This document shows positions 15,361-46,100 of a DNA stretch of 64,000 nucleotides, one piece after another (positions within the stretch are counted from its first letter, which is position 1; each line of letters begins with the position of its first letter). The notes below the pieces were generated by a model that saw only the letters and a program-made list of their open reading frames with translations, was not told the DNA's origin and searched no databases. The stretch spans positions 1-64,000 of the forward strand of contig MEDY01000086.1 in the NCBI GenBank assembly GCA_001724265.1. The letters are read 5' to 3'. The translations under genes and the position numbers were made by a program. Origin of the DNA: Rhizaria sp. SCN 62-66. Its lineage: Eukaryota.

Positions 15361-15392
<32 letters not shown>

Positions 15393-16489: not shown

Positions 16490-16521
<32 letters not shown>

Positions 16522-21651: not shown

Positions 21652-23138
21652 ATGCTCACGCAGATCTTCCTCTACATCTACCGCCAGTTCCTCTCGCCCT
21701 ACATCCAGATCGATGAAGAGAAGGTCAGCATTGCCCTCTGGAGCGGCAGCCTTAGCCTTGAGAATGTGCGCGTGCGCGCCGATGCCTTGGACTTCCTCGA
21801 CCTGCCGATTGTGGTTGAGCACGGCGTGGTGGGCACTTTGACGCTGTCGGCCGACTGGGCGCGCTTCCACAGCGTCCCAGTCAAGGTCAGGCTTGCAGAC
21901 GTCACGGTGCTTGTGCGACCCCGTGACCACAGGTACGGGAGCGAATCCACTGGATATCCGACAGATTTCACTGCCTTTACCGCTATACCCATTGTCTTTG
22001 ATGCATAATGCGGCATCACATATCACCATCACTCACTTCTATCTCTCTTCTCTCCTCGTGCTGTACCGCGACCGTGCTATTTTTGTAATTCTAGGACGAT
22101 CTCCGAGGAGGATGTGCGCAAAATCGTCGCTGCCCGCCACGAAGCCGCCCTCCGCTCCGCCTTCGCGACCTTCCAGAAGGAGCTCACTGCCGCCGCAGCC
22201 GCCGCCAGCGCCAGCGCCAGCGCCAGTGCCAGCGGTGGCAGTGGCGTGGGCCACTTTATCGCCCGCATTGTGAACAACATCCAGGTCGAGGTGACGAACG
22301 TGCACGTGCGGCTTGAAGCATTCTCGCCTGACTCGGCCGGCCTCGGTAAGGCCACACCCCCCAGTGCCTCCAGCGCCAGCGGCATCAGCGGCGCCAGCGC
22401 CAGCGCGACCGCGGCCAGTGGCGGTGGCGGGGGGGCCGTGGGCGGGAGCAACTCGGCTGCTGCGGCGGCCGCGGCCGCTGCCGCTGCTGCCCGGGCGCGG
22501 GCCCGCGCGGCGAAGGGCCTCTCTCTGCGCGGCGGCGGCGGCAGCAGCAGCGCTGCGGGCACTTACACGGGGGGAACTACTTACCCCGGTGCGCGGGGCA
22601 GTCGCCGGCCGTCGACCTCCGCCGCCCTCTCTGCTGCTGGTGCTGTTTCTGCCGGCTCTAGCTTGGGCCGCGGTGGCAGCAGCCGCAGAGGCAGTCAGCG
22701 GCCACGGCCGGCGACGGCCACCCCTGCTGTCATTGGCGCTGCTGCTGCTGCTGCAACTAGCGGCCCAGTTGGAGATACAACTGATGCTGAGACTGGTGGC
22801 ATCGCCGAGGCAGGTATCGCGATTGACACTGACGTCGACGCCGACGCCGATGCTGAGGCTGCCGAGGCCGACGTTGAGGCGTACGCGGCCGAGGCCGAGG
22901 ACAGTATGAGTGAAAGCAACAGCAGGAGCCCTGTGAGTGGCGCCCGCTCCGTTGTTTCGACCGTCTTTGGCCCTGTGCCGGCCCCCTCGAGCAGCGGTAA
23001 CAACAACAACAACAACAACAAGGATAAGGCGTACGTGGGGACAAGTGCTTTTTCGAACCACCTCCGCCGCCTCCGTAAGCAGCAGCAGCAGCAGCAGCGC
23101 ACAAGTGCTGGAGCAAACATCAATGACGACGCCTCCGC

Positions 23139-23169
<31 letters not shown>

Positions 23170-26100
23170 AGTAACCCTGCAACCGCGACCGCGGCCGCGG
23201 CCCCGACTGCGGCCGCGGGTGATGACGACAGCGTTGGTGGCATCGCCCTCGCATGCGGCCTGACTTTGTCTTCGCTGACGGTGGTCACGACCCTTGCCGA
23301 CGGCACGCGCGCGTTCGCCGCGCCCGACGCCGCGGGCACAATGCATAAGCTTGTGACCGTGAGCGGGCTGGGGTTGTACTGGGGTGACGGCTGCAAGGTC
23401 ACGGCCATGGACCTGGCTCTGCCCCCGCTCAGTAATGCACAGCCGCAGTTTCAGTCGCAGTTATCATCGGCAATGGACGCAGAGTCTGTTGGCGGTGATA
23501 CCAGTGCTCTGGGCTCACAGTCAGTTAATCCCCATGACTCTGACAGTGTAAGCGCGAGTGTAAGCGCGAGTGCAATCAATTCAGCTGCTGTGAGGACGTA
23601 TAATGAGGCGATTGCGCGGATTAACGGCTGTTTCTACTCGTATGCAGTCCGCAAGTCGCTCGCCACTGCGCTCGCCGCTCACAGCCACATTTACTTTGAC
23701 AACAACAATAGTAGTTTGATCAACAGCAGCAGCAGCGGTAATGCCAATGTATCGAGTAGTGCTGCTCTGTCTCCGCTGCTTTCCGCCGCAAACACGAGCA
23801 CAAACACCGTGAATACGGTCAATGCGAATGCTATTTCTGGCGCCAGCGCCAGTCGCGCGTCGCCACTGCCGTCTATGCCTGTGTTTATGCGTTCCCTCGA
23901 GCCCCGCAGCGTCATCATGGCGGCCGACATCACCGTCGCGCTACACCTCGCCCCCTCTGCCACGACGACGACAGCCTCCGCAGCTGAGGCCACGAACGCG
24001 AGTGTGATGGAGAGCGTCACTGTCGCGGCAGCCACAGTCGCTATCGCGCTGCCGTCTCTGCACATCGCGCTCAGCTCGACGCAGTTGCAGCACGTGCAGC
24101 TCCTCGTCTCTCACCTCACGTACCTGACGACGCTGCTGCGGCACGCACCCGCGCTCGCGCCGCCGGTGCGACCGGGCCCAGCGGCCGAGGCGGCCGTGTT
24201 CGTGGCCTCGGCGGCCGCGGACGCGGTGCTGCGCAAGGCGCAGGGGCAGCGACGCTGGCAGCTTTACTCGCAACAGCTGCAACAACAGCAACAGCAGCAA
24301 CAGCATCAACAACAGCAACATGCGTCTGCTTTGTTCCCGCGTCTCACTGCTTCGAGCGGCAGCAGCGCTCTGAAGGTCAACGCCGCCGCTGATGCAGCGG
24401 GCAGCGACGTGTCCGAGCCGTCGTCATCCCCCCGCTCGACCGCAGCGGCAGCAGCAGCTGCGGCAGCCGGCCGTCTCTCTGTCGCTGCATCTAGTGCTCC
24501 CTCAGCAGGCAGCACATTCCCTGGGTCAACGACGACCATGACTGTGCTCATCGCGCCCCACGCGCTCGGCCCGACCGAGTTCGCCCCCGCCGACGCCCGC
24601 GGCCGCCGCCTCGCCCTGCGCAGCGCCGTCGCGGGCGCCTGGTGGGGCTGGGCCATCCAGGTTGTGCGCGCAGGCGTTGCGCTGCGGCTGCGCAGGCGCT
24701 CTCTCACCCACTTGTGCCGCTTCAGGGTGGCGCTCAGGCAGTACGCGCCTCTCTACCGACAGGTCCGTCTCTCTTCATGCTTGTTCATTTTATTTTCACA
24801 AAATCGATATCTCATCCAGTTTCTTTTTTAGGGAACATTTTACATGTATTTATGTTTAATTAGTTGTTATTTCCATGTTTTAGTCTAATTAATTTCAATA
24901 TTATCTTATTTATATACTTCATTGACTGTTTTTTTGTAAATCGCCGCTCGTTGTGTTTAGGTTCTCGCTGATCGTGCTGGTCCTGACGCCGCTGCGGACG
25001 CGTCGATGATCGAGGCCGCGTGGCCTTTAGACGTAGTACTTACATTCCGCGCCGCCGTCGAGGCCCAGTGGCGCGCCGCGAAGACCGTGGCCGAGGCCAT
25101 CGCCACCGCCACTCTCGGCAACCACACTAGCGCCGACGACGCGGGCGACGGCGAAGACAGCGGTGGCGGCGGTGGTGGGATGCTGGGCTGGGTGCGCCGC
25201 GCCGCCGCCGCCGTTGCGGCGCCCGTTGCGACGGCGATGGTGACGGCTGATCTGGCGCTGCGCGGGGCCCGCTACACCGACCCTGTGGCGACGATGACCC
25301 CCGTCTCCTTACTATCGGCTGCGGCGCGCGCACGGCTCGTGGCGCTGGCGGGCGCGGAGGCCGTCGCCACGCTCGACCAGCAGCAGCGCAAGGCGCAGCG
25401 CATCGCGTTGATCAAAATCAAGCAACAGGCCACTGCAGTTCCTGGCAGTGCAAGTACTAGCCACGGACATGTAAGTACCCGCCTGACCACCGCGGCCCCC
25501 GCAGTGACCGTGAGCGACGCCGAGGTCCTGGAGGCGCTGCGACGCAACAACAGCGCCGCATGGGCCCTCGAGCCCTCGTACGCGCTGCTGTTGCCGGCGC
25601 CCTGGGCGGCGCCGCAGTCGGCCACGCAGGCGCTCGAGCTCACCGAGGCCGAGGCCGCGGCCGCCGCGGCGGCTGCCATCGCGGGGGGCTCGGCTAGCGC
25701 TGGAGCGGGCGCCGCCGGCAACGCACACACGAACGCAGGCAGTGCCAACAGCGCTGGCGATGCGGCGCTGGCTGGTAGTAAGAGCGGTACAAGTGGGCTC
25801 ACTCGTGAGGACGTGAGTATCTCGGTGAGTCTCGGCCACGCGAGCATTACGCTGTGGCAGCCCAGTCTGGTGCGTTATAACAGGCGGCTGGCGGCGCTTA
25901 GCGCGGCAGCTAGCGGGCAGGAGTACTTAGAACCCTGGTACTTAGAACTACCCAAGGCGATCCCTATCACGTTTGTCTACCCTACTGCACCGCAGCAGCT
26001 GCCACAGGCACAGACGCTGCAGACCCAAGTGCAGCCTCAGTCGTCCAGTCAGATCCAGACCCAGGGGCTGCCGATGCTGTTGGCGCCCCCGTCGTTTAAG

Positions 26101-29100
26101 CAGACGCAGTCGCCATTCCTCACCGCAATGAGCGCCCCCGCAGTCACTCTGGCCCACACTGCCAATAATGCTAACATGAACGTCCACAACAGCAACGTTC
26201 GCAGGCATATCCCCGCAGCGCCCACCGCTACGACGACGACGACGACGACGACTGCGAGTACGAACGGTAACCCTAGCAATAGTAGCCCATCTACGACGAC
26301 TGCTGTTGCTGGTAACGCCCACAACGTGAGTGTACCTGCCACTACTGTCAATAGCAGTCCTGCCGCGGCGCGTGTGGCGCCGCTGCCCCCGTTCCTGGCC
26401 GTCCCCACGCAGCTTCCCCTGCTCATCGACGCCTGCGAGGCCTTCCCTGCGCTGCCGCAGTCGCTGTGCCCCGTGGCGTCCCCCAGCGACTGGGCGGTGA
26501 TGGAGCGGGTCGCCGTCAGGGCCAAGGTGCTGGACTCGGTCCGCCGCCAGCAACAGCAGCGGCAGTAGTCGCACGCGCAACAACAGCAGCAACAGCAGAT
26601 GTTGAGCGCGAAGGCGGCGAGTCGCGCTTCAAGCCCGTTGCTGACCCTTACGAATGGAGGTGCCTTGCGCAACAGCAACAGCAGCAGTAGCAGTAGCAGT
26701 AGCTCTTCCGCTGGCACAATGCTGAGCTATAACAACGCAGCAGGTAACAATACTGCTGCTCTTGATGTTGAAAAGACTGCTTCTGAGAACAACAACAATC
26801 CTGGCTCTAGCTCTAGCTCTAGCGAAGTCTCTGGTGCGAGTGGCAGTGACGATGAGTGCGAGAGCCTTAGTGACAGCAGTGTAACTACCGCTGATGCTGA
26901 CAACGCTAAGTCTGACAACAGTAAGCAGGCTAAGCGCAAGGCTAAGCGCGCTGCCCGCCGCGCCAAGGCCGCCTTGACTTCGAGCGCCACTGCGATTGTG
27001 CCTGCGCGTGCGGCTGGTGGCGACTCTGATAGAGAGGGCGGTGACAGCGCCGGTGTCGACACCATCGCCCCGCTACCTCTGCGCTTGCCCGCGGTCACGA
27101 ATCTCTTCTTGCCGTCGACCCCCTTGAACAGCAACAGCAAGAGTAGCCAGGCCGCCGCAGCCGCAGTGACCGCCGCTGCCGCCGCAGCGTCAACCGCCTC
27201 AGCCCGCGCCTCCGCCGCCGCCACAGCCGCCTCTGCCGCCGCCGCGGCCCGCGCCCTGTCCGGCCTCTGCGGCCGTCCCTACGCTGCCGTGACCCGCGGG
27301 ACGTGGGACGCTCTGCTGGCGCAGTCGCTGCCCTGCGCGCATGGCCACCCCGTGCACGCCAGGCTCAGGGCCGGCACCGCAGCGGCCGCGGCGACGGCGA
27401 CGGCGATCATGGTCGCGTCGCAGACTGCGGCGGCGGCGGCAGCGGCGGCCACGGCGGCGGCGGCCGCGGCGGTTGCTGCGAGTGCCCTAAATGGCGGTGC
27501 GAGTGCGGGTAGTGCTGTAAGTGGCAGTAGTCTAAGGGGCGTGTTGCCGTCGCCCTTACACGCGCGCAGCCCGATGCACACACCGTCACACTCAAATTCG
27601 CTGCGGTCGCCCCTGCACCAGCACAGGGACCGCGGTGTAACTACCCCCTTACATGCCGCTGCCAAGACGCCCTTACATCACTTTGGCGGCGGGGTTCCGA
27701 AGACCCCCTTGCACGCCGGAGCAAAGACCCCCTTACACCGGAGTAAGCAGCAAGCCTTTTTCGCATCCCCCTTCAGCTCCCCTCAGCCCCACACTGCCAA
27801 CAACAACACCACGAACGCGGCTGTGAACGCGAGCGCAAGCGCCGCCTCTGGGACCGCGGCGAACGCGGCAACAGCGACGACGACTGCGACTGCATCTGCA
27901 TCCGCGCCTGCAACCGCTGCAGCGCTGTCCTTCCCGGTTGGTTTGGCCGCCCTCGTCGTCGCTCTGGCCCAGCACGGCGTTCTCCTGCACACGGCGACCG
28001 GCGCTGGCGCCGAGTGGACCGTCGCGCCCGCGGCAGCGGCCGCGGCGCTGCCGGGTTCAGCCGCCGCAGCGGCCGCCGCAGCCGCGGTTGCCACAACGGC
28101 CACGGCTGCCGCTACTGCCGCGGCCGCTGCGGCGGCGGCGACTACCGCGGCCAACTCTGCCCTCGCAGCAGCTGCGGCAACAGCAGCGTCGACTGCAACT
28201 GCGCAGCAAAGCTCGTCTAGCTCGCAGCTGCAGCCACAAGCTTCTCTGGCGCAGTCACAACTGCAGGCACACCAGTCTCTGCTGCTGCAGCCGCAGTCGG
28301 TGCTGCAGTCCATCTTTCCCGTCAGCATCCCGTCCTCCTGCGCCCTCATCGCCACCACCCCGGCGCTGGCCGCGGGCCTTATTACGGGCGCCGCCGTGAC
28401 CTACAGCACGCCGTGCGCCTGCTGCGCGCGCGCGCTGGCGTCGGCGGGCACGCAGCGCGCGTACCACCGCCACCGCACGCGCCTGGCGACGGCGTTCTTG
28501 CTCGGCGCAAAGCCGGCGCGCGCCAGCCAGGGCCCGCTGAAGCCCGCCGCCGCGGTGCACTTGGTCCAGGCCGAGGTCACTGTCGGCCTCGGCGGAGGGG
28601 AAACGAGTGTTGAGGCTGTCGTTGGCGCCATTTATGCGCACCAAGTAACGCAGCAGCAACAGAAGACGCGGAAATCGGGCAAGAGTCCTGATGCTGTGGC
28701 CGCTGCGACGGCCATGGGCTACGACAGCAACAGCAACAGAACCTCCACTTCGAGTATTCACGCTAGCTCCGGTGCTAATGTCGGTGTCTCTAGTCTGACT
28801 CCGACTACGAGTGCGAGTACAACCGCGCCTCTCGTGCACCCGCGCGCCCGTCGTCTCGCGCTGGCCCTGGCCGCCACAGACTCCCTCCTCCTCTCCCGCC
28901 ACACGATCACGCCCTTCGGTGCCCGGCCCCTGTTCACTGCGCTCGTCGCGCCTCAGGGCCTCGCGCGCGTCGCGCCCCGGGTTGCGGCCGCGGCGGCGCT
29001 GAGGGCGCAGCGGCGGCGCGCGCCAGGCGGGTTTGTGGTTGAGCGCACCGCCCCCGGCGCAGCCGTGGCGGCGACCGCGATCTCAACGCTCAACGCTGAC

Positions 29101-32100
29101 AGTAAGCAGCATCAGGGGCGTAATTCCTCGAACGCTGATGAGAGCAAGAGCTCGCATATTGCGACTGATTTCAGTGACGGCGACGATGACGACGATGATG
29201 ATGACGACTTTGACATCCTCAGCACTGATAACAACACCGGCCGCCCCCACAACCACAGGAGTGCCAACGAGACTAACGCCTCTGCGACAGCGCCCATGGT
29301 ACCGCACACAGTCAGCGCCGCCGCGGCCGCGCTGGCCCAGCTGCCTTCCGCGCTGCGCCGCCGCGCCCGCGCCGCCACGTCCGCCGTGGCCCCCGCCGGC
29401 TGGGGCGTAGCCCCGCTGGCTCGGCGGCTTCTGCACGGCAAGGGTGTGCCGACCGACACTAGCAACGGCCTGCCCGCGCCTCTGTCACTGCCACTGCCTC
29501 TGCCCGCAGCTGGCGCTGGCGCGGGCGAGAATGAACAGCAGCAGCCGCTGCTCGCGCTCTCGCTGCGTCTGCGTGCGACGCCGACGCTGCAGCAGCCGCA
29601 CACGAGTGTGATTGCGCGGTCCCAGTCGCTCGACATCGTCGTCTGCACGGACACGATCGCGCTGCTGACTAAGTTCGCCGAGAACGCGACTGTCTCCGCG
29701 TTCGCGCCCTACCCGCACCCGCCGGTGCCCACCGCTAAGCATCACAGCCACCATCACGGCCACGACAACGCTGGCGCTAATACGAGCAGCTCGAGTGCCT
29801 CTGGTGGCGCTGCGGCCAAGGCTAGCTCGCCCGGCTCCAAGGACGACTTGTGGTTAGACTTGGACCTGCGTTCTCTGTCGTCCCTCAACAACAGCAACAG
29901 CACCGCGAACGGCGCCACGAGCAGCGGCCAGCTCCAGTACATGCTGCACAACCAGGTGCGGCTTTACTTTGACATTGCCGCCGCCGCGCCCACGGTTATC
30001 ATTGCACACCCGCAGGCGGCGCGCGGCGAGCTTGGGGCCATGCTGGTGCTAAACCTGGGGCACCTGACTGTGAAGACCAAGAACCTCACGAATGCTGTGG
30101 ACGCAGTTGCGACGCTTGCTGGCGTAGCTACAACAGCGACAGCTAGCTCTGGCGCTAGTAATGCTGCGACTATTGTCAGTTCAAACCCTATTCCTGGCTC
30201 TGGCTCTGGCTCTAGCTCCGGTACTCGTGTCGGTGATACCGCAAACGCAAATTCCGGTAAAGCTGGCGCAAAGGAGTCATCAATATCTGTTGTTGCTTCT
30301 GTTCCTGCGAGCAGCAGTAAGGCTTGCTCAGCTGTTGCCAGCGACAAAGATGACGACGATGAGGACGAGGAAGAGGAGGAGGACCAGTTCTTCGATCCCG
30401 ATGCCACCACCACGGACACTGAAGCGAATAACAACAACACCGCCAACCCGACGAACATCGACACATCGGCGGACAACACAGGTGTCTCTGTGAACAGTAC
30501 GCCGAAGCACTCTGCTCTCAACACGAGCAGCAACAACACAAGTACTGTGAATGGATTGCTGTCACCTCCTAGCCTGCGTTTGAGTGCTACTAACAGCGGC
30601 GGCTTAGCTTCCGCCTACACGCCCCGCTCCTCTGGCGGCTTCAACAACATCAGCAAAGACAAGACGAACGCAGCAGATGTCGCTGCCAGTGGCGACCAGC
30701 TTAGCGGCTTAGCTTCTGGCGCCTTCTTGTACTCGCAGCTGCACAAGACGCTCAGCGTCAAGAGCAATAACAATCTTGGTAACGCGAGCTCCAGTGACAG
30801 CAACAGCAGTGAGGATGATGATGACGTTGCAAGCGACAACTCCAGTGCCAGTGCCAGCGCCAGCGCCACTGACAACGACGGTGAAGGTCACGACGGCCGC
30901 AACAAACGCCTTGCTAACGCCGGCATCAGCGGCGGCGACGGTGGCGACAATGTGGCTAGCGCCAGGGCCAGTCACAACACAAGTGCGAATGCGGTAGGCA
31001 ACAGCGGCAACAGTCGTTTCTCTCTCGACAACAACGAGACCCCGCGCAAGCGCAAACTTAGCAGCGCAATCGACGCTGCCCGTGCAATCAGTTTGAGTCC
31101 AAGCTCTGCCAACAGTGCCATCAACGATGGCCAGCTGTACGGCGTCGAGGCGGTTCTCAAAAAGTCCCACCTGTTCGACCACATCGAAGTCACTCTGGCG
31201 CACATGCACGCCAGTCTGGTGCCCGTGGCGATGTGGCTTTGGGTGAGGCCGCAGCGACTCGTCCCGCTGGTGCCGCCGCGCGACACCCCTTACATCGGCG
31301 ACGGCGCGGGTACTTACGCGAAGCACGGCAAGAGCAACAAGGACAAGTCTAAGGCCAAGTCAAGTCACGGCGGCACTGCTGAGAGCGTTGGCTCTGCTAG
31401 TTCGCTCTTTGGTCACGGCGCTGTCGTCGAGTCCGAATCGGAGTCTGAGTCAGAGACTGGTGAGTCCAAGGCCGACTGGGATCGCGGTGACTCGTCAAAG
31501 TTTAGCCGCGTCCGCGCACTGTATGCGCAGACGTTTGCATCTGCAGCATTGCTGGCAGAAGAGCATTTCTCATCACCCTCGTTCTTTAACAATGCAAGCG
31601 CCAATGCAAGCACTTCTTCGAGTGACAACAGTGACTCTACCGCCGCTGCGTTCTCCAGTGGTCTTGACAGCAGCGCGAATAACCCGTATTCATCTGTCGC
31701 GCGCGCGCTGCCCCCGGCCCTGACATTCCTGACATCGGCGCGAGCCACCCCCTTACTTGCCCCCCTCACAGTGCGCCTCTCGGTGTTATCCTCGGTTGCC
31801 CCGCTGCACCCGGCATTCCCGCGTGTGACTGTGAGCGCAGTGGTGTCTGAGACCGTGGTTACAGTGTCTGCGCTGCAAACGAAGCGGTTGTGCCAGTTGG
31901 TGACAGGGCTCACGACCGCGTTCGCGCCCCCCAACGCAGCTGCAACCAGTGACGCAAGCTCCACCGGTGTTTCCTCCGTTGCTGCTGAGCCTGCCTCCAC
32001 AAAGCCGCAGCAGCCGAAGCAGCCTAAGGCTCAACCCAGGGCTAAGCCTCAGACTGCTGCTTCTGCTGCTGCTGCGGCTACGGCTGCTTCTAGCACCGAC

Positions 32101-35100
32101 GCTACTGCTCGTGCAAGCGGTAATGTTGCATCTGATAAGAAGGTCAGTGATAGTTCTCGTACTAAGAAGGCTACGACGAACACAACAGTCGCTACTGCTC
32201 CGAACGCTGGCGCTGGCGCCAGTGCAACGACTACAAGCGTCGTTATCGGCGACAGTGTTGCGCTGCGCAGGCGGCCCAACTTCCAGGTCCACTTACACTG
32301 CCCCAGTCTCAAGCTTCGGCTCCGCAGTGACCCTTTTTCTGCCCAAGCTTCTGCCGCCACTTCCGCTTCCGCCGGCAACACCAGTGGTGATGCTACGGGC
32401 TCAAGTGCCAGCTCTAGTGCAGCAGCAAATAGTGCTGCTGCCGCGGCTGCGTCGTGCCTGCTTTCGCACACTTTGTCTGCCGACGCTGTGGTCGCCAGTC
32501 TGTATCTGCTTGCTTTCCAGCAGCGCGCGCGATGGACCGCGCTATGCGCCGCCGCCGCTACCGCCGCGCGCGACGCCGCCGCCGCCGCTGCAGCCACGGC
32601 CACGGCCACGGCCAGTGCGAGCTCCAGCTCTGGCGCCGGCGCCGCCGTGGCCGCCGTCCGGTGGGCGCAGCTGTCAGCCGCGGCACTTGCATCGTTTGCG
32701 GCGGCCCCACTGTTGTCGTCGGCGGCGACAGCAGCGAGTGCGCCGGTGTCTGTGTTTGGCGCAGCGTTTGCGGACAAGCAGCAGCTCCAGCGGAAGCCGC
32801 GACCGCAGCAGCAGCATGGCTCTGGGTATGTGTTCACTGCACAACCCGTCCCTTTGCCGTGGCAGCAGCAAGCTGTTCTTGCGAAGCAACAGCAGTTGCA
32901 GCAGCAACAGCAGCAGCTGCAAAAGCAAAAACAGCAGAAGCAGCAGCAAAACGCGCGCATGTTCCATGCTCAGTACAACAAGAGCCGCGGCCTAGCTTCC
33001 AGCGTTAGCGGCAGCTTATCCTCCTCGATGATGCCTGGGGACGGCTTGACTTCCCGCAAATCGAACCTCTCTGCGTCAACGATGCTGCCCCCGGCGAACG
33101 CCACCAAGAGCAAGGCGAAGAGCAGCAATGGCAACGCTTCGAAGAAACAGTCGTCGCTGTCGCGGTCGCAGTATTCTCTCGCTGCCAGCACAATGCTGCC
33201 GTCTAGCGCTGACTTCACATCAGTCTCAGGCTCTGGCTCCGGCACTGGCGCGAACCTCGGTGCAAGTGTCAGCGGCGGCAAGCAAGCGCGGGCACACGCT
33301 CTCTTGCGCACTGAAAAGCGCAACAACAACGCTTCACAGGCGCAGACACAGGCGCAAACTCAACAGGCTGCCCAGGCCCAGGCCCAGGCTCAGGCTCTAG
33401 CGCAGGCGCAGGCGCAGGCGCAGCAGCGTCTCGCCGAGGCCGAGGCCGACGCGGAGACCGCCGCCCTCGTGGCCTCGGTGCGCGCGCAGTGGCGCTGGCG
33501 GGGGCACTCGTACATCGAGCGGCTCGTTGACTCTGGCGCGTACCGTATGGTGTCGGCGCTCAAGTGGGACAACGGTCTACTCAGTGCTGGCAAAAACACG
33601 AATAACAACGGCAGCGACAACACGAGTAGTGGAAATACTGTGATTGTTCCTGTGTCGAGTCTAAGTACCTCCGAGCGCGACCTCTTCGAGGTGCATCTAA
33701 GTACCCTGACCTGCGAAGTCATTGCGAGCGACTCCAAGCTCTTTGCTGCCGTCGCCCTGTCTGACATCCAGCTCACAGACGCCAGCGCAGTCAACGATGC
33801 GTTGTATGGGCGCGTTGTGACATCGAAGCCGCCGCCGCTGCTGGCGTATGCGATGGCCAGGACCAAGATCACCACTGTCGCCGCCACCAACACTCTGAGC
33901 AACAACAACAGCGGCGGTATCGGTGCGGGTAAGAACGTGTCAGGCCCCAAGACTCCTGCCGGTGCGGCCAACGCGTCCGCTGGCTCTGGACTGACGACTC
34001 CGGACCATTCGCGTCGCGGCTCTCTTGCCCCTGCCTCGGCGTCTTCGGGCAGCAGCACCACCGCTGCAGTGAGTACTCTCAACACGCCAGTTGTGCCGAG
34101 TCATAGTGGCACCAGGCTGACCGCACCCTCCCCGGTCCCTTTCGCTCTCACTCTTCACAGCGCAAGCGATGCCCGTACCAACGAGTCGCATGGCAGTATT
34201 GCTCACAGTGCCGGCAGCGGCAAGCTCAGGGGTAAAGCGAAGGCTGTGGCGGCCGCGGCGGCGGCGGAGGCTGAGGCCGTTGCGATTGCCGCCGCTGAAG
34301 CCGCTGCCGAGGCAGATTCCCGCGTGATTATGATCACGTTTGAATCGTTCTTTCCTTGCATCACCACGAGTACGGCCGACTACCGCAATGCTACAACTAG
34401 CTCTGCCAATGCTGCTGCTTCTCGAGGTGTTGGGGTTGCCGTGTCTAAGGTTGCGGTGTCTAAGGGGCCCGTTACAGCATCGTGTAAACCTGTCAGTAAA
34501 CGCGCAGGCATCCAAAGTGATAGAGTCATTGTGTCGCCGTATCATGGCCGTGCGGTGACTGATTTGCCCACTTTCTCCCGTGCTAAGCTGCTTTTGAACG
34601 AGATTCACGCCAACTTCACTCAGTCCGCTGTGACCAACATCACGACCGCACTCACTGCGTTTGTTACTGCCGCCACGACCGGCCTTGCGCCCGCCACTGA
34701 CGACTGCAATACCAACGTCATCAGCAGGAGCGGTTGCAAGGATGGCGACGTGGCGAATAGCTGCAATACCGCTGGCAACGTGGTTGCAACGATGACTTTT
34801 GAGATTGCCTTTTTAGAGTCGTCATGTGTGGCGATCGCTCGCTCCCGCGGCTTAACTTCCGCAGACGGCGGCTTAGCTTCCGACGGCACTGCTAACAAGT
34901 CTAAGGGTGCCAGCGATCGTGACCGGCGTGACCGTGAGCAGCATCAGCAGCAATCCGACTCCACTGATAAGCTCGCTCGCGAGAATTCTGCTCGCTCGAC
35001 TGCGACTACACCCAACGCAAGCATTAGCGCCGGTGTAAACACGGTCCCCAATGTAAGTGCCAGTGCCCGCGGTGTAAGTACCGCGGGTGACCGTGAGCGC

Positions 35101-38100
35101 CTCGTCCCCGACCCTCTGGACCGCGTTCTGACTCGCCATGAGGCCTACCTCAGCTCCCTGCAGGAGCAGGAGACGTGGCTGCGCGTCACCCAGGCCAAGA
35201 TCGCGCGCGCAGGCGCCGACCGCAGCGCCGCGGGCCGCCTCTGCACCGTCGGAGAGAGCCTCGGCAGCGCGATTAGAGCCACTGTGGCCGCGGCGGTCGC
35301 GGCGGAGGCGGCGGCAGAGGCTGCTGCTGCGGAGGCCTCGGCGGCCGAGGCTGCCGCGGCTGACGCGGAGGCAGGAGATGCCGCGACAGGAGCCGATGCT
35401 GATGGTGACGGTGGCCTGGTTGACGAAGACGGTGACGACGCTTGGAGCAAGAGCAATGCTGGCGGCTATGTGACACTCGGTGTTGCCGACCGCGCTATCG
35501 GCTACGGTGCGGGCTACAGGGCTCGCGGCAAGGCCAACGAGAACAACGACGAGGACCAGGGGGATGACGAAGGCGAAGACAACGCAGCTCGGCAGCACCA
35601 GCAGCAGCGGCGTCGTGTTCTGCCTCGCTTTACCTCGACTCCGAAGTCAAGCCGCTCTCGCTTAAACGCGGACAGCAACAACAATGGTAACAACAACGAC
35701 AACAACACTGCTGCCTCAGCGACGGCGGCTGCGACTGAGACCGAGTCGGACGCTAAGGCTTCTCGCAGTCACGACGCACCTGCGAATGCGCAGTCTAAGT
35801 ACCGCCGTGGCAAAGGTAAGTGGTGGTTCTCACTGCCGCATCCAGCTTTCGCACACTACCCGGTGCCCTTTACCGTTGTCGGCGACACTGGCGCAGTAAT
35901 CAACGCTGCTGCCAACGCCGCCGCAGACGCTGCCGTAGCCGCCACATTCAACAACAACGTTGATGACGGCAACAACAACGTGACCACCAGTCATAGCAGC
36001 GATGTGAACACCAGTGTCCGTATTCCGTCGCTGCCACGTGCGTTTGCCACTGCCCGCCGTCGCTGCCTCCGCGGCCACTGCGCTGTGCCCACCACACACG
36101 CACACCACAGTCGCCACTCAGCCGCGCACCACCACAGGTCTAGGCAACCGGCGCGCGCCGTGCACTTAGACGGCGGCGCGGTGCAGTACACGGCCTGGCA
36201 CTCACTGCTGCCGTCCAACGAGAGCGAGCTCGTCCGCCTCGGCCTCGCGCCGCCGCTGCTGCCGCCAGTTCTGCTGCCGGCGCCCGCGGCAGCGGTGGCG
36301 GCGGCCGAGGCGGCGGCCGGCGCGGCGCTGGCTGGCGTCGGCGTGGACAGCAACGACTGGGAGTATTCGCTGGGTTACGGTGACAGTAACAACGCCAACA
36401 GTGCTGCGAACGATGAGGCTGAGGCGGAGGCCGCTGCTGCTGCCGACGCCGCTGCTGCGCTGAACAACGATGGCGATGACAGTGACGATGATGACAGCGC
36501 GTCCGTGGTTGTCTTGGACACAACGGTCGACTCGGTCGCAACTCCCGGCGCGGGCACCCGCTCGAAGGCAGCAAAGGTGAGCGTTAACGCGAACCAGACT
36601 GCCAGTGCAACTGCGAGTCGCAAGCGTTCCTCGTCAGTCTCGTCCTCCGCATCCTCGTCCTCCCTCGCTGCCGCCGCCGCCGCTGCCGCTGCCACTGCTG
36701 GTCTGGGTACTGGAGTCAACGCCTTGTCCCCCGCCGCGGCCGCGCGCCGCCGTCGCCGCGCTCTCCTGCGCGGCGCGGAACTGCGGATGTCCGACTTCCC
36801 TGTCGCCGCCTGCGCGGGTCTGGCCCCGTACAGTGTGACTGACGCGGCCACAGGCCGCCGCTACCGTCACCGCGCCGCGCTGCTGGGCTCTAAGCGCAAG
36901 TCGAGCGCCCGCAGCAGCTGTGACAACGGCGAGTGCGACTGCGAAGGCAACGGGGATGACGATGACGACGATGATGATGACGACGACAGCAACAACAATG
37001 TTGCAAGCGCTCTCTTTGCGCTGCCGACGCTGCTCGTCGTCGCCCGTTTGCGCCACGTGAGCGTCACTCTCCACGACGAGACGACGCGCACGGCGCTGCT
37101 GCTGGCGTCTGCGCGCTCGCTCATCGCTGAGGCCGACATGCGCGACGCGGCCGGGCTGCGCGCGCGATGCTCGCTGTCTGCCGTCGACGTGCTCGACACC
37201 AGGGCCACGTCGCGCGCGCTGCGGGCTGCACTCACCGAGGGCGGCAGCACTCTGGCGGCCATCGTGCGCCGCAACCTCACCGGCGAAACGCACCAGCACC
37301 ACCCTAGCTACGGCAATAACGGCTCTAGCGCGAATTGCGGCGGCGATATGGTTGTGGTGGCGCCTGTCAGTGTGCTGTCCCGCAGGTCTCTGGCCGAGGA
37401 CGGCAGCGCACCGCTGCTTGCGGTGGAAATCTCCCAGCTCAAGGACAGGCGCGGAGTGCTTACGGTCACTGCCCACGGCGGCCTTCGATCGCGCTCACAC
37501 GCGAACACCTCTGCGAACACTGGCGAAAGCGACAGCAACGCTGACTATGACAGCAACTACACGGACGGCGACAACGCCAGTTCCTACAGTGTGAGAAGCA
37601 CTCGCTCTCACCGCGGCACCGCCTCTGCAACTCGCAGCAGCGCGGGCAAGCCGCCATGGCAGCAACTGCAGCGGCAGTGGCCGTCGCTGGCGCGTCTCCC
37701 TCCGCACGCGGCCCTCCTGCCCGGCGGCCCCCGCGCCGTTGCCGTGGCCGAGCGGGCGCTGATGGCGTCGTTGTTGCGGCGCGAGCGGGAGGCCGAGCGC
37801 GGACTGCTGCTGGAGCACGACATCGCCATCGCCGCACGGCTGCGGTCACTCAAGTTTACGCTTGACCCCGGGTTTGTGGTCGACTTGGTCAAGTTCGCGA
37901 AAACGCTTGCCAGTGTGAATGCAAGCACGAGCAGCGCTGCTGAGAGCAACTGTGATGCAAGTCGCAGTGATGCTGCAGCGAGCAACGATGCTAGAAATGA
38001 TAGCAAGAAGGAGACAGGTGAAAATAGCAAGCCTACTCCGGATGCTACTACGAACAGTAGTTCGCATGTGTCCGCGTCGCTTATCTCCGCAAAGATCATG

Positions 38101-41100
38101 CTTAACAACCCGCTTATTCTTATTCCGATCACGAACAGTGGTAGCATCAGCAGCTCGACTCCATCTGCTGGCTCCTGCAGCGCAAAGAATGCCACTGTTG
38201 CTGACGCTCTGGCAACTGCTGCCTCGGCCGTCGCCGCTGCCACTGCCGCTGCTGAAGGCGCGGATGCTAAGAGCTCCCCTGTTGACTCTAATGCAACCAC
38301 ACCTGATGCCGGCGGGAGCACCCCCGGCCCAGGGCAAAGCAAGCGTTCGTCGTTCGCGAATGCTTACAAGGCCCGCAAGACGCCTCAGACTCCGTCTCAA
38401 CCTAAGACTCAGTCTCAGACTCCGAATCAGAGTCAAACCCAGACTCCCGATGCTAATGCTGCTGCACCTGTGGCAAGCTCGGCCTACGAGTACTTTGTTC
38501 TCGACTTAGGCAGCTTCGATGTATCCACAACGGCAGTGTTGTCTCTCAGCAACACGCAGATTCTGCTGCCGCTGCTCTCGGCACCACCTGTGTTCGAGTC
38601 CGGCGCTGACTACCTCCTGCCGAATCTCAGCGCGCCCGCCAGCGGTGGTGCGAGCGTCACTGCTGCAGAAGTCAGCTCCGGTGCCGGCGGTGTGAAGAGC
38701 GGACCTAGCAGTCCTGTGGCGACGTCATCGAAGCCATCAAAGGCTGCGAGTGCTGCCGTTGCCTCGGCTGCGTCCGCTAGCAACAGCAACGACAACAGTG
38801 CGATCAGCAACAACAAGTTGTTCACAGCCACAGATGAAAGCACGCTCAATGACATCGACGTCATCGACAGTGCGCGTGCCGCTGACACGACGGCCATGAA
38901 TGACGGCGACGACATCACCGGAGACAGCAACAGCAACGACCTCGCATTACCTAGTGCGACGATTGCGAGAGACACTAGAGCTGTTGACGTAGAAACGACT
39001 CTGCCTGCTGTCGGCCTCAACGATGTCGATACGGCAGCGGCGGATGGAGATAGCAGCGATCTGCCCGCTGCAGCCACCGCGACGTCGGCAAAGGCGGTGA
39101 CTGCCACAGTCAACGAGCCCTCTTCATTCCCGCTGCACTCTCGCGTCCACGGCGTCTACAACACTCTCGCTGCGTCCTCGCTGGCGCCCTCCACAGCGCC
39201 GCTGCCCTTCGCCTCCGCAGTAGCGACGCCGTACCAGCTGGCGACGTGGTGCCCGCCGTTGCTGACCACTGCGCTGGCGCCGCTCATGCGCACGGAAGTG
39301 ACGGTGAGCGCGCTCAGGGTGACGCATCTAAGGGTGCAGCAGGAGCGGCTAAGTACCCGCGTGACGCTCACGCCCTTAGAAAACAGCAGCGGCGTCAGTA
39401 GCAACAACGCAAGCAACAACCACGCGTATCTGTACTACAACGATATTGCGCCGACGAATGTCAGCTCTGTTCTCTTTGCACCGCAATCGCCTTTTGGGCC
39501 AGCAAGCGCGGTCTCTGCTGCTGCGAGTAGCAATATTATGCGGAGCGGCTCGAAGGCACAGCATCAACAGCAGTTAATCCAGCAACAGCAGGCGTTCGGT
39601 GCGATGACTCCCTTGCGTACGCATGGTGGCTTAACTTCCGCCGGCGTCCTCGCCTCTCCCGTCGTGGTCGCTGCCTCTCCGTCAGTGCCCCACTCTCTGA
39701 TGACGCCTCTCGGCGCCGGGAGCCGCCGCAATAGCACAACTGCCGGCGGCGGCTTGCCTTTGACTGCAACGCGCCCTCATCCTCCTTCCCGCACTACGAC
39801 TGCGGCGAGTGGAGCTGCAACGCCGCTGCCGAACAGCAGCGTCCCGTTCTCGTCCCCCGGTCCTGGCATGCTTTCATCAGGCCACTTAGGCGGATTCGCG
39901 CCTATGACGACTCCGCTGCGCTCCTCCGCCTTTGCGCCCGCACACAGTGCTGCCACACCGGCGACTGGCACTTCAACTGTTCCTGCAGCCGCGCCTGCAA
40001 CGCCAGCAGCGTCAGCATCCACGGCGAGTACTGTGAGCAGCGCAGTGTGCAATAGCACTGAGCCGCTGGTGCCGTACTACCACACGCGCGCCAAGCACCT
40101 GATCGAGGAAGTGACCGTGAGCGCGCGCGTCACGACGCCGCTGTGCCGCGCCGTCACCGCGCGCAGCCCCGCGCTGTCCGTGGCCGCGGCCGTGTCGTCC
40201 GTGGCGGTGCTTGTGGACACGGACGACATCAAGACGCTCGCGGGGATGGTCGTGACCGCGATTGCGCCGATCCTCGCCATTCTTAACGACAACAGCTGCG
40301 ATGCTTGTAGAGAGCACAGCTATCGTTCTGCGACTGGCGACAAAACTACCTGTAGCGAGGAAAGTGCCCCCAGCGATGGTGTTGCCGTGAGCGATAACGA
40401 AACTGCGCCTGAGGAGCAGAAGAGCGACGCGGCTAGCGGCGTAACTTCCGCAAAGCGCAGTTCGGCTGCCGTGGGCGCGGCATCTCTCTGGGGACTGCCT
40501 GTGGTTCCGAGCAGCAGCCAGAGCAGCAGCAAAATGTCGCTGTTCAGCCCCATTCGTAACCGCAGCAACACTAACGCGGCGGATTACTACAGCAGTTATG
40601 CTGACATTGCTGAGTCGAAGGACGATCAGTCACTGTACGGCGATTTAAGTTCCCCGGGCGCGAACGTAAGTACCCAGATCGAGCTTATGTGGATCGGTGA
40701 CGCTCTCGCGCTCGGGCCTGTCCTTGGGCTTGGACATGGTCAAAGTTTAAGTACCCCCTTACACGCTGGTAGCTTCTTTCACCGCGCCTCTGGTGCTGCT
40801 CCCGATGCGGCACTCACACCAAGTCTTAGTACCTTGCTATCGTTTGACTTCAACCCCCTCGACTCCGCAGCTGTTCTTGCAGCGGCCTCGGACAACACTG
40901 TCCCTAGCACGGCGAATGCGACCGCTGCAGCTACCACTGACAGCAAGGACGCCGATTCTGCCGAGAGCGCTGCTGCTGCTTCTGCTGCCGCGACGACTGT
41001 GCCTCCTGTGTTGCCGCCCTTGTCACTACTTGCGCAACGGCCCATGCCGACGCTGTGGCCCTCTCTGCTTCTTACGGCGGCAGCCAACAACAACAACAAC

Positions 41101-43115
41101 AACAACAACAACAGCAGCAACAACAACATGGCTGGCTCCCCGGCTGCCGTCTCCTTCGCCGCCGCTGCCTCTGCCGCTGCTGATGGCAGCTTGACTGGCG
41201 TTCAGACTGGATTCTTCGCTGACATCGAGACCGAGTCTGGACTGGCTGGCTTCAGTTTAGAGACTCGTGACGTTGGCGCTGGTTCTGATAGCGACTCCCG
41301 GAGCCACAGCCACAGCTACGGTCACGGCTACTATGGCCGTAACGCGGTTGGTGCCGAGGACGGCGGTGATGACAGTGCGAGTGAGTACGACTACGACGAA
41401 GACGAGGATGACAGTGACGAGGTTGACGGCGTTGGCTATGTCAGCGACGGCGACGACAGTGGCAGCGACTATGGAAGCAGTTTTGGCTACAACGGCTACG
41501 GGTATCGTTTCGGCTTCAATGGAAGCGAAAGTCAGTTCTATGTCGATGGCAATATTAACCACGACTACCAGAATGAGAACACCAATCCCAACGACATTGA
41601 TGTGTATCTCAGTAGCAGTGACTCTGACAACTACTCTCTGCACCACCGCAAGACCGTGGGCAACGACAGTGATGATACCGATAACAACTCGGATGTGCTT
41701 AGTCTCAGTCTCGGCAGCAGTGTTGGCAGCGGCAGCATTGGCAACAACGACGAAAACAACGACTCGGCGCGGGGTGCTTTGAAGTCAGGTCGCGTTGACA
41801 ACAAGTCAAGCCGTCCTGGATTTGACCGCTATCGCACTGCCTATGACGGCAGCAACACTGACACTGGTCAACAGCAGAGTCGTTACAACCTCAACGCGGG
41901 CGCTGACACCCACTCCGTCACAAACTCCCCCTTCGTCTCGCCCACCAACGCGGCTGCGACCGCGAGTGCGAACGCGATCGCCAGCAACAGTGCCGCCGCC
42001 GCCTCCGCCGCGGCGACGGCCGCGAGCGTCCGCCGCGCCCTCCGCCGGCGCCGCCGCCGCGTCGCCGCCTCGGTGCTCGGCGCGCGCGAGGAGGCCACTG
42101 CGCTGGGCCTCGCGGCCGCCGTGAGCTACGACACTGTCGTCGCGGCGCGGCAGCTCTACCGCAGCGCAGTGGAAGAGAGCCTCGAGAGGCAGGCCGTGGC
42201 CGCGTGGCTGCGCGCACTGGACCTCTCTGCCAGTGTCAGCTCGGACAGCGGTGCTGCTGCTGCTAACGCCCAGACGGTGGGATCCCCTTCACGGCAGTCG
42301 TCGCCTGTCAGCGTGAACGCCAAGACTAGCGTCGACAGCAATGCCACGCCTAGTGCCACCGCTAATGCTGCTGCTGCTGCTGCTGCTGCTGCCGTCTCAG
42401 CTGTTGTCGCTGCTGCGGTTGGGTCGCGTCAGCAGCACTTAGACCTGCGCCAGTTGTACTTACAGTCGGAAGAGCGGCTGCTATCTGAGGTCCCGTCGGT
42501 GGCGCTCACGGTCACCCTGGCGCGCTTCAGCGTCGAGCTGTGGGCCGTCAACGTGCCCACGGTCACCGCGCCTGTGCCAGTGTCGCGCTTCAACAGCCAG
42601 TACAACGCGCTGGTGCAGGCGCTCTTCACCCCGCCGCCGCTGCACTTGCTTCCCAACAGCGCCAACTCGACCGCCAGTGCGAACAGTGGCGTCGCTAGTG
42701 CTGCGCATGTGAGTGGCAGTCCTTCAGACCCCATGACCCCAGTTCTGAGCAACACCAGCAGCGTCAGCAACGCCGCTAACGCTGGTGCGAGCGCCGTCGC
42801 CGGCTCTGGCGTCAGCGCCGCTGCGGCCGCCGCGTGGCGAGACAACCAGCCTTCGCCGCGTCACCGCGAAAACATGCGCAGCATCAGCAGCAGCATCGTT
42901 GCTATTAACAACAGCAACAACAGCAAGAGCTCGACGTCGACGTCGACGCAAGGCTTGCGTGCGCTGTCGCCGACTTCTGCGTCGAACGGTGGCCAGAGCA
43001 TTTCACTCCGCGGCTTCACGTTCGGCGGCAACGACAATGCCGCGACAAACGGCAACGGCCACAATGGTGTCGATAATGGCCGAACGTCGTTCGCAAGAGC
43101 TGCCCCTGCGCCCAT

Positions 43116-43151
<36 letters not shown>

Positions 43152-46100
43152 CGGCGTCTCGTCTGCTAGCATTAGCAGTGCGCCAAGTGCGTTCACGTAC
43201 ATGGGCCGTGCTATCACCAACGACCTCGCCGCCTCTCTGTGGCCCGCTGCACCGCCCTCAAACATCGGCGTCAACGGGAGCTACAACAGCACATCAACGG
43301 CCTCTGCGGCGACCACGCTGCCACCTCCTCTGTCGCTACCTGTGGTGCGCTTCTCCCTCTCCGGTCTGGCCGCCGCTCTCGAAGTTAGGCCGCTGCAGGA
43401 CACGGTCCTCCTTAAGGCCGAGGTCGCCGCAGTGACCGTGCGCGACCTGCGGCCCGACTGCTCACACCCGGCGTTCCGCACCATCTTCTCGGTCCAGGAC
43501 AAGGCGCGCCGCGTCCAGAGGCGCCAGCTGCGGGCACACAGGAAGCAGCAGCTGCAGCAGGCGCGCTCGAACGCGGCCGCCGCCGCTGCTGCTGCTCGTG
43601 CCCACGCCCGCGCGGTCGCTGCTGCTGCAGCGGCCGCCGCAGCGGCAGCGGCTCACAGTCACCAACGCGGGAGTAAGTGGAGCGGTGTAAGTACTGGCTC
43701 GTCGGCCGGAGGTCTAAGTACCTCTGCAGTCGGTGCTCATCACCGTCTAAGCGGTGGAATGCCGCACAGCCCTCAGAAGCTCCCCAACCTCATCGACACC
43801 CGCAATCACCCCTACAATTTCAGCTTCCCTCCCCCCGAGCAGCAGCACCAGTTCTCCTAGTACCAGCAACAGATGAGCCAGCAGCTGCTGCACCAGACGC
43901 CCTACGACGAGCGCAGCTCCGTCTCGGGTGCCACGTTCCCCATCAAGCGCGAATTCGGCATCGCGCTGGCTACCCACCCGCTGCCTTTTTTAGACCGGCC
44001 CAAGGACGCCGAGCTGCTCGGCAAGGTGCGCCGTCGCCAGGCGCGCCGGCTGAGGCAAATCGCGTCCTTTTTCCCCGCCAACGCGCACGCCCGCGGCCAC
44101 GGCCGCGGGCTCGCTGCGCACAGCAGCCGCAACGCTGGTGACGGCGGCAGTGGCGCGCTTGGCGGCGCCTCTGGCACGGGCAAGGCGTTCTTTGCGGCTA
44201 AAAACACGTTCTCAGTCGAGGGCGATGGCAATAGCAACGCTGGCGGCGCTGGTCACGGCCACGGCCACGGTATCGGTCTCGGCGACGGCTCCGACACCGA
44301 CGCTGCCGCTGCTGCGAACGATCTGTACGGCCAGTACTACGACTGCGGCGACGACGACTTTCATCACAACAGCCGCAGCCCCCCGCGCAACTACAGCACG
44401 TACTACGCCAACACCGCCGCGAACGCTGGCGTCGCAGTTGGCGCCCACGGCCACGGCTCCTCGCAGACCAATGCCCGCAGCAAAAGCAGCAACAACCCGT
44501 GGGGCGCGGAGGCCGACTTTTTCGGAACCCCTGTCTCCGGCACAGGCGCCGCCGCCGCTGCAGCCGCCGCGACGGCGACCGTGATCGCCGCCGCGGCACA
44601 GCGGGGGCTGGTGCCGGTCGCCACCGCTACGAGCGGGGCTGGCGGCGCGAATGTCGGCCGTCGCGGTTCCCGTTCGCTGTGGTCGCCGCATCAATACCAG
44701 CGGGCACGGAAGCCGCGGCAGCAACGCCCCAGCCGCAGTCCCAGTCGCCGCAACAGCCAGTCTCACATCCACGCTCATGGACACGGTGGCGGTGGCGGCA
44801 GAGACAGTCTGATGTCTGCGGAGTGGGGCAGCGTCTGGTCCATGCAGAGCGACGGCGACCAACACAGCAACCCGGGCGGCAGCGGACGTGGCGGCAGCGA
44901 CAGCGAGCTGAGCGCTGACCAGGAGGCCGAGGAAGAGGCGGCCTGGGGCGACGGGTTCAACTTAAGCCGGCTGTGCCGCCACCACGTGTCGTCCGGCAGT
45001 GACGCGTCGGACTCTGAGGGCCACGGCAGCAGCAGCGACAGTGAGAATAGTGGCTGCGACAACGAAGACAGCGACAACGACGACGATGACGACGATGACG
45101 GCGACGACGATGACGACGACGCGAGCGCTAGCAATGACAACGGTCTCAACATCGCATTTGCCGCTCTGCAAACCGCGCACGCGCGCGCAAAGTCGACCCA
45201 CACCAGCAGCAGTAGTGGTAGCAATGCCACGACTGCTGCCGCCGCAGCTGCAGCGGCCGCGGTTGCCTCAGCCGTGTCCGCCGCCGCTGCCGCCGCGTCT
45301 GCCGTTACCGGCACTGGCAGTGGCCCTCTTGAACTGGCCTTCAACCCGTCTAGCTTTGGCCTCGACCCCGCGTCCCTGTCTCTGGCGCTGACGACCGCGG
45401 CCACGCACTTCGCCCGCGGCCGCGCATTCGTGCGCGCAGCGGCGAGGGCCCGCGCTGCGGCGGCCGCGGCAGAGGCCGAGGTCGGCTCCGGCGCCGGCAG
45501 TGAAGGCTCTCTGTCATCATTGCCGCACAGCGCCATGGCGGCGACAGTTGTCTCGGCCATCACCGCGTCGCCGTCGCGCACTAAGCACAACCACGGCCAC
45601 ATGCCTGTCTACGCGCACGCGCACGCCCACGGCCCGAAGCACGGTGGCCGGCCGCCGCATCACCCGGCCAGCGGCGTCGGCGCTGGCGCTGGTGCTGCCG
45701 TCAGAGCGGGCGCGGGATCGGCCGCGTCTGTCGGCCACGGCTTTGCTCCTGTGGCTCTCAAGAGGCAGCTGAGTGCTGGGCAGCAGCGCCGCATGAGTGT
45801 CACTACTCCAGCTGTTAACTCCGCCTCCGCTGAATCGAACGCGAACACTGGCGTCGCTAACCTGGGCTGCGAGAGCAGCAACAACAGCAACATCGGCGTG
45901 AATGCGATCGCGAGTGCGTCCGTGGCCGAGCCCATCGCGGGCACTTTGCTGCGCCGCCGTCTCTACAGGGCCCTCTTCGGCCGCTCCCGCACGCACCAGT
46001 TTGGCTACTTCGCCGCCCGCAACCACATTGACTACGCGCTGCACTGTCTCTCCAACAGCAACGCGGCCAGCGCTGGCGTCGGCACGGTGACCGTGCTGAG

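Follow-up and report, generated by a model that had tools for sequence, protein, structure and literature searches.

The window analysed here, the first 64,000 nucleotides (forward strand) of contig MEDY01000086.1 from Rhizaria sp. SCN 62-66 (assembly GCA_001724265.1), carries a giant gene for a VPS13-type lipid-transfer protein with two TAG codons inside its third exon, and the question is how these are decoded. The DNA is of eukaryotic, intron-bearing type with a GC content of ~0.6-0.69. Judged from splice sites read off the sequence, introns of the window are ~160-200 nt long and AT/CT-rich, their 5' ends reading GTACG or GTCCG. Source communities are bioreactor, wastewater or activated sludge according to a look-up of the sequencing runs.

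An open frame of 39 kb with two TAG codons

Frame 1 of the giant exon consists of three abutting stop-to-stop open reading frames (ORFs; 24961..26568, 26569..43860 and 43861..63999, the last one open at its 3' end). From 24961 to the window end its only stops are a TAG at 26566 (TAG1) and a TAG at 43858 (TAG2). No TAA, no TGA and no frameshift is found across the 13,013 codons of frame 1, so the preliminary description of this DNA was right in naming the two TAGs as the sole interruptions of the exon, and the peptide contexts it gave for both are reproduced as well. The other two frames contain 279 and 576 stops over the same 39 kb. An open frame of this length is thus far beyond chance. The whole gene (21652-63999, plus strand) comprises at least 13,996 codons with the frame still open at the window end. 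VPS13 proteins usually have a size of 3,000-4,000 residues, making the gene described here several times larger; its length is inflated by low-complexity inserts of Ala, Ser, Asn, Gln and Gly.

The assignment to VPS13 is based on domain matches. PF12624 (VPS13_N) aligns to exon 1 (profile positions 12-98, 54.4 bits, E 6.6e-15) and again to exon 2 (profile positions 171-224), both times as a partial match below the full-length cut-off. In a protein atlas VPS13_N clusters score 0.97 against exon 1, whereby its placement there falls into mixed phyla. VPS13 domains had been claimed downstream of both TAGs. This is borne out by a VPS13_VAB match (26.3 bits, cut-off 22.6; 20.1 bits when the region is scanned as a 1000-aa piece) and by two weaker ones in the expected order, i.e. 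VPS13_M (profile positions 735-759, E 0.069) and VAB (profile positions 53-149, E 0.057), the latter upstream of the main VAB match; all of them are short. Between the two TAGs none of the six pieces scanned matches a Pfam family. Based on the order of the Pfam matches, both TAGs are predicted to lie inside the lipid-transfer rod, in disordered low-complexity inserts or linkers. The gene hence resembles VPS13 and other bridge-like lipid-transfer proteins by its chorein-type N-terminus followed by VPS13_M and VAB matches in canonical order. In contrast to them, it owes its exceptional length to the inserts and shows a rod that for the most part is not recognised by Pfam. Coordinates of all features are given in Table 1.

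Table 1. Features of the window with positions, strands and supporting observations.
Feature	Position	Strand	Remarks
VPS13 exon 1, chorein-type N-terminus	21652-21932	+	VPS13_N profile match; splice sites read
VPS13 intron 1	21933-22094	+	splice sites read
VPS13 exon 2	22095-24762	+	VPS13_N match
VPS13 intron 2	24763-24960	+	198 nt, AT/CT-rich, contains four frame-1 stops (last at 24958)
VPS13 giant exon 3	24961-63999	+	13,013 codons, frame open at window end, two TAGs inside
TAG1	26566-26568	+	codon 1519 of the gene model; CGG CAG TAG TCG CAC; Gln at -1, Ser at +1, T at +4
First in-frame ATG after TAG1	26599-26601	+	+11 codons
TAG2	43858-43860	+	codon 7283; TTC TCC TAG TAC CAG; Ser at -1, Tyr at +1, T at +4
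First in-frame ATG after TAG2	43873-43875	+	+5 codons
VPS13_VAB match (PF25036)	57079-57195	+	26.3 bits, cut-off 22.6; 38 residues, short; downstream of both TAGs
CCCH zinc-finger gene	~9503-5715 and 5701-2126	-	approximate exon positions; Pfam zf-CCCH
TAG at end of CCCH zinc-finger last exon	2126-2128	-	ends a 1,191-codon ORF; next in-frame stop TAA, 8 codons on

Authenticity of the TAGs and constraint on the downstream frame

Contigs of four sequencing runs (X2, X3, X5 and X6) were aligned to positions 25200-45100 at 85% likeness. Each contig has a low depth of 2-8, and rare variants are lost in contigs, so that a minor CAG allele is possible. TAG1 is spanned by one X2 contig (25893-26662; a run of 2025 from another study) without any difference or gap. 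The same applies to an X5 contig (26408-26658) from a polyA-selected metatranscriptome, which is moreover unspliced; this RNA library may contain DNA. TAG2 is spanned by an X3 contig (43160-44305; another sample of the source's own study), again with no differences, and judged from bin depth it is likely covered in X2 as well. The preliminary description had proposed to look for CAG or an error at 26566 and 43858. The contigs of the other runs carry TAG instead, and an alternative letter is not seen at either position in any of the four aligned runs. Assembly error was therefore rejected for both TAGs. TAG1 is identical in runs dated 2015 and 2025, hence it is fixed or at least common. The 520-aa ORF ending at TAG1 is present on five contigs of the protein collection.

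Removal of TAG1 from the transcript by splicing or editing, likewise proposed for checking, was rejected as far as the contigs show, since the polyA-RNA contig is colinear with the DNA and retains the TAG. This holds for TAG1 alone; among the listed X5 RNA pieces the nearest to TAG2 end at 43758 and start at 44065. Beyond both TAGs, parts of the sequence are represented by polyA-RNA contigs. Tiny introns at TAG1 were discarded too: inspected by eye, each GT...AG candidate from 26565 or 26568 into the CAG/CAA run that follows is 1 mod 3 in length; the real introns of the window have the length, composition and 5' starts given above. Besides, two 151-base contigs of X6, a DNA run of 2024 filed under the coded name of an organism, match at 26714-27202 (plus strand) with a depth of 2 and 0-1 differences, together with matches in repeats, so that the eukaryote may be present at trace level in that run.

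The sample differences indicate how the frame has evolved. Of 25 listed single-base differences between the window and the four runs, 24 are located between TAG1 and TAG2. As many as 18 are synonymous compared to 26% expected at random, and 19 fall on codon position 3 (P = 1.6e-5). Seven of the synonymous ones derive from one short X5 polyA-RNA contig at 39207-39240 (plus strand; 7 differences in 34 bases, all third-position and synonymous). This contig resembles a diverged allele, or else the orthologue of a close relative expressed in the same community, perhaps of a more distant one. The deletions listed for the X2 strain comprise 3 and 12 bases, both multiples of three, and the one insertion in the list, 2 bases long at 36743, lies in a high-depth repeat as a minority form. 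Downstream of TAG1, at 27146 (plus strand) beside a CAA/CAG repeat, a single base is missing from one X3 contig (depth 5.2 of 5.2). A genuine deletion would mean a frameshift in one strain, but the contig may also be cross-mapped from another organism. Because the sample differences are mostly synonymous, the frame beyond TAG1 has on balance experienced purifying selection in recent times, which does not date the TAGs themselves. An old pseudogene fits poorly with such synonymous-biased variation, and some decoding past UAG is plausible.

Use of TAG in the window and in known codes

According to the preliminary description, UAG either encodes Gln in this organism or is efficiently suppressed. 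Suppression is plausible in view of real TAGs, the presence of TAG1 in RNA and an intact frame under constraint. Reassignment is a different matter. It had been argued that decay of a pseudogene should yield TGA and TAA codons as well. To evaluate this, all single-base routes from sense codons of the exon-3 ORF to a stop were counted. Between 62 and 67% of them yield TAG (P(TAG) 0.62-0.67 per hit), with CAG>TAG as the most numerous class (373 sites), so the argument fails. For a pair of random nonsense hits, the probability is 0.38-0.45 that both create TAG and 0.02-0.15 that both are CAG>TAG, varying with transition bias. Finding only TAG does not demand a changed code, given this chance of 38-45%.

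Codon usage points in the same direction. All ORFs of the window (18,945 codons) contain 519 CAG, 120 CAA and 2 TAG, i.e. TAG makes up 0.31% of the Gln-type codons (2/641) or ~0.1 per 1000 codons. The TAG/CAG ratio is 0.004 as opposed to 0.23 for CAA/CAG. If TAG was synonymous with CAG, mutation alone should raise it toward the CAA level. The low number of in-frame TAGs fits a codon under negative selection rather than a synonymous one. Frequent in-frame UAG across many genes, the mark of a full UAG = Gln code, is not seen; both TAGs are located in one gene, and the other 5,932 codons of the window have none, with ~0.9 expected. Neither TAG is at an alignable or conserved residue, both being situated in low-complexity linkers. 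The residue Gln proposed previously has to be regarded as a guess: Gln runs are found 1-4 codons from each TAG on one or both sides, but TAG2 is directly flanked by Ser and Tyr codons. In exon 3 Gln accounts for 454 of 13,013 codons (3.5%). No tRNA gene and no Rfam family was detected in the 64-kb window. A reassignment of UAG is not demonstrated by these data.

The gene ends of the window bear on the same question. SDE2, the SAXO-like gene and the ChaC-like gene terminate in TGA as described before, whereby homology supports the end of ChaC only. Overlooked so far was that the last ORF of the minus-strand CCCH zinc-finger gene stops at a TAG (2126-2128). Here the coding score of that frame, 0.56-0.91 bits per codon up to this point, turns negative, GC3 falls from ~0.8 to ~0.4, and no coding signal is seen beyond the TAG in any minus-strand frame. 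The GC content decreases from 0.70 in the 300 bases before this codon to 0.41 in the 300 bases after it, much as at the three TGA ends (0.65 to 0.41, 0.62 to 0.45 and 0.66 to 0.42). Across TAG1 (0.68 to 0.54) and TAG2 (0.67 to 0.69) there is no such gene-end collapse. The CCCH TAG is thus probably a working terminator of a gene whose C-terminus is without homology support. At any rate the gene ends at the TAG or just after it, given the TAA 8 codons on. This argues against a full reassignment and not against an incipient one, since at an early stage former TAG terminators would remain. Under an old, complete reassignment a sense TAG within the last 8 codons of one of the four genes would have a chance of only ~0.3% at the observed usage.

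NCBI translation table 15 also reads TAG as Gln. Reassignment of UAG alone to Gln has been described for Iotanema spirale (PMC5304391) and for the ciliates Hartmannula sinica and Trochilia petrani (PMC11687900). For the two ciliates, UAG is reported to represent 18.5% (Hartmannula) and 31.8% (Trochilia) of the Gln codons, with internal UAG in 78-84% of genes (PMC11687900). In Iotanema 204 in-frame UAGs are given for 126 genes (1.6 per gene), with no gene ending in UAG in that dataset, and 384 in 71 genes for the rhizarian exLh (PMC5304391). Suppressor tRNA genes have been reported for two ciliate genomes with UAG = Leu. The VPS13 gene shares with the UAG = Gln lineages the in-frame UAG in the absence of in-frame UAA and UGA, the TGA terminators and the Gln-rich surroundings. 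In contrast, UAG is common there, whereas here it is restricted to 2 sites in 18,945 codons with a probable TAG terminator next door. Ambiguous codes, where the same codon is sense within genes and stop at gene ends, are described for Condylostoma, Parduczia and Blastocrithidia (PMC5304391, PMC4967479, 10.1101/2022.04.12.488043). UAG would likewise have both meanings here, but in-frame stops are abundant genome-wide in those species as reported and nearly absent in this window.

Standard-code yeast provides a further parallel. Premature stops in Gln-rich domains (snf5-Q225X and Q267X) are subject to near-cognate readthrough with insertion of Gln (PMC13192750, preprint). This needs Gln codons on both sides (QXQ), is aided by C at +4 and scales with a transcript Gln content of 7-20% (PMC13192750). 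Alike are a premature UAG in or near a low-complexity Gln tract, a downstream part that is still needed and, with Gln inserted, no change of the code. Neither QXQ flanking, nor C at +4, nor a high Gln content is found at the VPS13 TAGs, however: TAG1 has Gln at -1 only, TAG2 on neither side, and two stops occur in series.

Readings of the two UAG codons

As a possible explanation, which we tentatively prefer, the standard code applies and the giant VPS13 gene carries genuine premature UAGs that are tolerated via low-efficiency near-cognate readthrough. The host is a GC-rich, intron-bearing wastewater eukaryote, which would use the standard code throughout its genome, with UAG still ending genes. 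Both TAGs would have arisen by single-base substitution, TAG1 likely from CAG and TAG2 possibly from CAG, TAC or TCG. A near-cognate tRNA, chiefly tRNA-Gln(CUG), would sometimes outcompete the release factor at UAG and insert its residue, such that full-length VPS13 may still be produced at a low level.

Several points weigh against this. Two stops in series multiply low efficiencies (e.g. 5% x 5%), and whether so small an output can maintain selection over 12,500 downstream codons is doubtful. Gln codons on both sides are present at neither TAG, +4 is T at both, and Gln makes up 3.5% of this protein compared to 16.7% in Snf5. A readthrough-stimulating RNA structure was not predicted after either TAG (z = 0.40 for TAG1, -0.36 for TAG2). 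The variants seen in the samples may be older than the TAGs, and the X2 strain taken alone, with 8 synonymous and 7 non-synonymous differences, is weak evidence for constraint. Furthermore three of the four gene ends in the window are TGA and one is TAG, none of the TAG ends being supported by homology, and the CCCH TAG may permit a short readthrough extension up to the TAA 8 codons later.

A very recent loss of function under the standard code is rather unlikely in our estimation. TAG1 would truncate VPS13 after 1,518 residues, TAG2 would be a later neutral hit, and the 37 kb downstream would have had too little time to gather frameshifts. It draws on the same standard-code evidence as the readthrough model, namely the mutation routes, the avoidance of TAG and the TAG end of the CCCH gene. 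Relaxed selection after the first hit predicts two stops in one gene, the low divergence between samples implies that little time has elapsed, and the 1-base deletion at 27146 in one X3 contig would suit a gene in decay. That deletion, however, adjoins the CAA/CAG repeat and may derive from another organism at 85% likeness. The variation between the TAGs has a strong synonymous bias, the X2 deletions are in frame, and the 2-base insertion is a minority form. Moreover, 12,477 codons past TAG1 show no frameshift, TAA or TGA in spite of repeat-rich DNA, TAG1 is the same in the runs dated 2015 and 2025, and polyA-RNA contigs are found over parts beyond both TAGs.

Incipient or ambiguous decoding of UAG, probably as Gln, appears unlikely. 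It would require a suppressor tRNA with CUA anticodon or a weakened eRF1, with UAG still ending some genes. This would amount to an 'ambiguous intermediate' at very low codon usage, equally unlikely, with TGA as main terminator and back-up stops at TAG ends. It is favoured by TAGs that are real, fixed and transcribed, by purifying selection on the downstream frame and by the lack of further defects in 39 kb. TGA at three of four gene ends agrees with it, the sole TAG end has its back-up TAA 8 codons later, and very low usage is what an early stage should look like. On the other hand there are two sites only, both in one gene and neither at a conserved residue. The remaining 5,932 codons lack TAG, with only ~0.9 expected, and the window is without a tRNA or Rfam match. 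Known ambiguous codes, as far as described, often use stop codons as sense (PMC5304391), and the prior for a change of the code is low.

Complete reassignment of UAG to Gln as in Iotanema, Hartmannula and Trochilia is very improbable. The CCCH gene would then end at the TAA 8 codons on. Both interruptions being TAG, three gene ends being TGA and the Gln-rich surroundings are in line with it. However, TAG represents 0.3% of the Gln-type codons, which is 60-100x below the known UAG = Gln codes, a sense TAG so close to the end of one of the four genes has the small chance estimated above, and the restriction to TAG is not significant.

Termination followed by re-initiation or internal initiation is hardly to be expected. 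Three polypeptides would result, the second and third starting at the in-frame ATGs located at +11 and +5 codons. ATG constitutes 0.83% of codons and the joint chance of this spacing is ~0.5-0.9%, a figure calculated post hoc. By the order of the Pfam matches, both breaks would interrupt the lipid-transfer rod, whose groove has to be continuous, and to our knowledge re-initiation after ORFs of 1,500 and 5,700 codons does not occur in eukaryotes outside special viral signals.

An artefact, be it an error of assembly or sequencing, a heterozygous CAG allele that was collapsed, or tiny introns removing the TAGs, is scarcely credible: the contigs are shallow and lose rare variants, and for TAG2 the confirmation comes solely from a run of the source's own study, but contigs of three runs (two studies; 2016 and 2025) have the same letters, four aligned runs show no other letter, the RNA contig is colinear over TAG1 and the tiny-intron candidates have the wrong length and do not resemble real introns.

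Should the decoding of UAG indeed have changed, a GC-rich lineage other than the ciliates would add one more independent UAG-only reassignment, perhaps at an early stage, with bearing on the debate of codon capture versus ambiguous intermediate. The locus is also a natural case of a giant gene with two internal stops yet signs of constraint, and thus a candidate for readthrough. On present evidence its main value is cautionary: in giant ORFs rich in GC and CAG, ordinary nonsense mutation looks like 'only TAG beside Gln', and a tally of terminators is needed before a code is inferred from them.

Relatives and neighbouring genes

Queries with a middle segment of VPS13 and with the VPS13_N exon yielded no relatives in metagenome contigs, and related DNA was not found in genome contigs (two scans) or viral contigs (one scan) either. 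On the protein level, the only relative over TAG1 among 8,000 word-sharing candidates of set length ranges is the window's own 520-aa ORF; over TAG2 there is none among 8,000 such candidates, and none for the VPS13_N exon among 439 word-sharing longer proteins of a set length range. These protein searches are weak evidence of absence.

The SDE2 gene (10451-11575, minus strand) has one clear collinear orthologue in an exhaustive search, P0005 with 308 aa (E 4e-58). It belongs to a related organism, is without the inserts of the SDE2 described here and is present on JGI/IMG and Logan contigs, the longest of which measures 16,827 bases. The next-best SDE2 matches are far weaker (E 5e-25), hence the lineage is poorly sampled. 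In the atlas the nearest cluster to SDE2 is labelled Perkinsozoa with a score of 0.79, which is under the 0.9 bar, and no placement was drawn from it.

None of the three ORF pieces of the putative SAXO4-like gene at 12010-13984 (minus strand, three exons) matches a Pfam family. The ChaC-like gene (14278-20445, plus strand) has its catalytic profile of 176 positions split over three exons, and ~1,600 residues of low-complexity insert lie between the conserved pieces.

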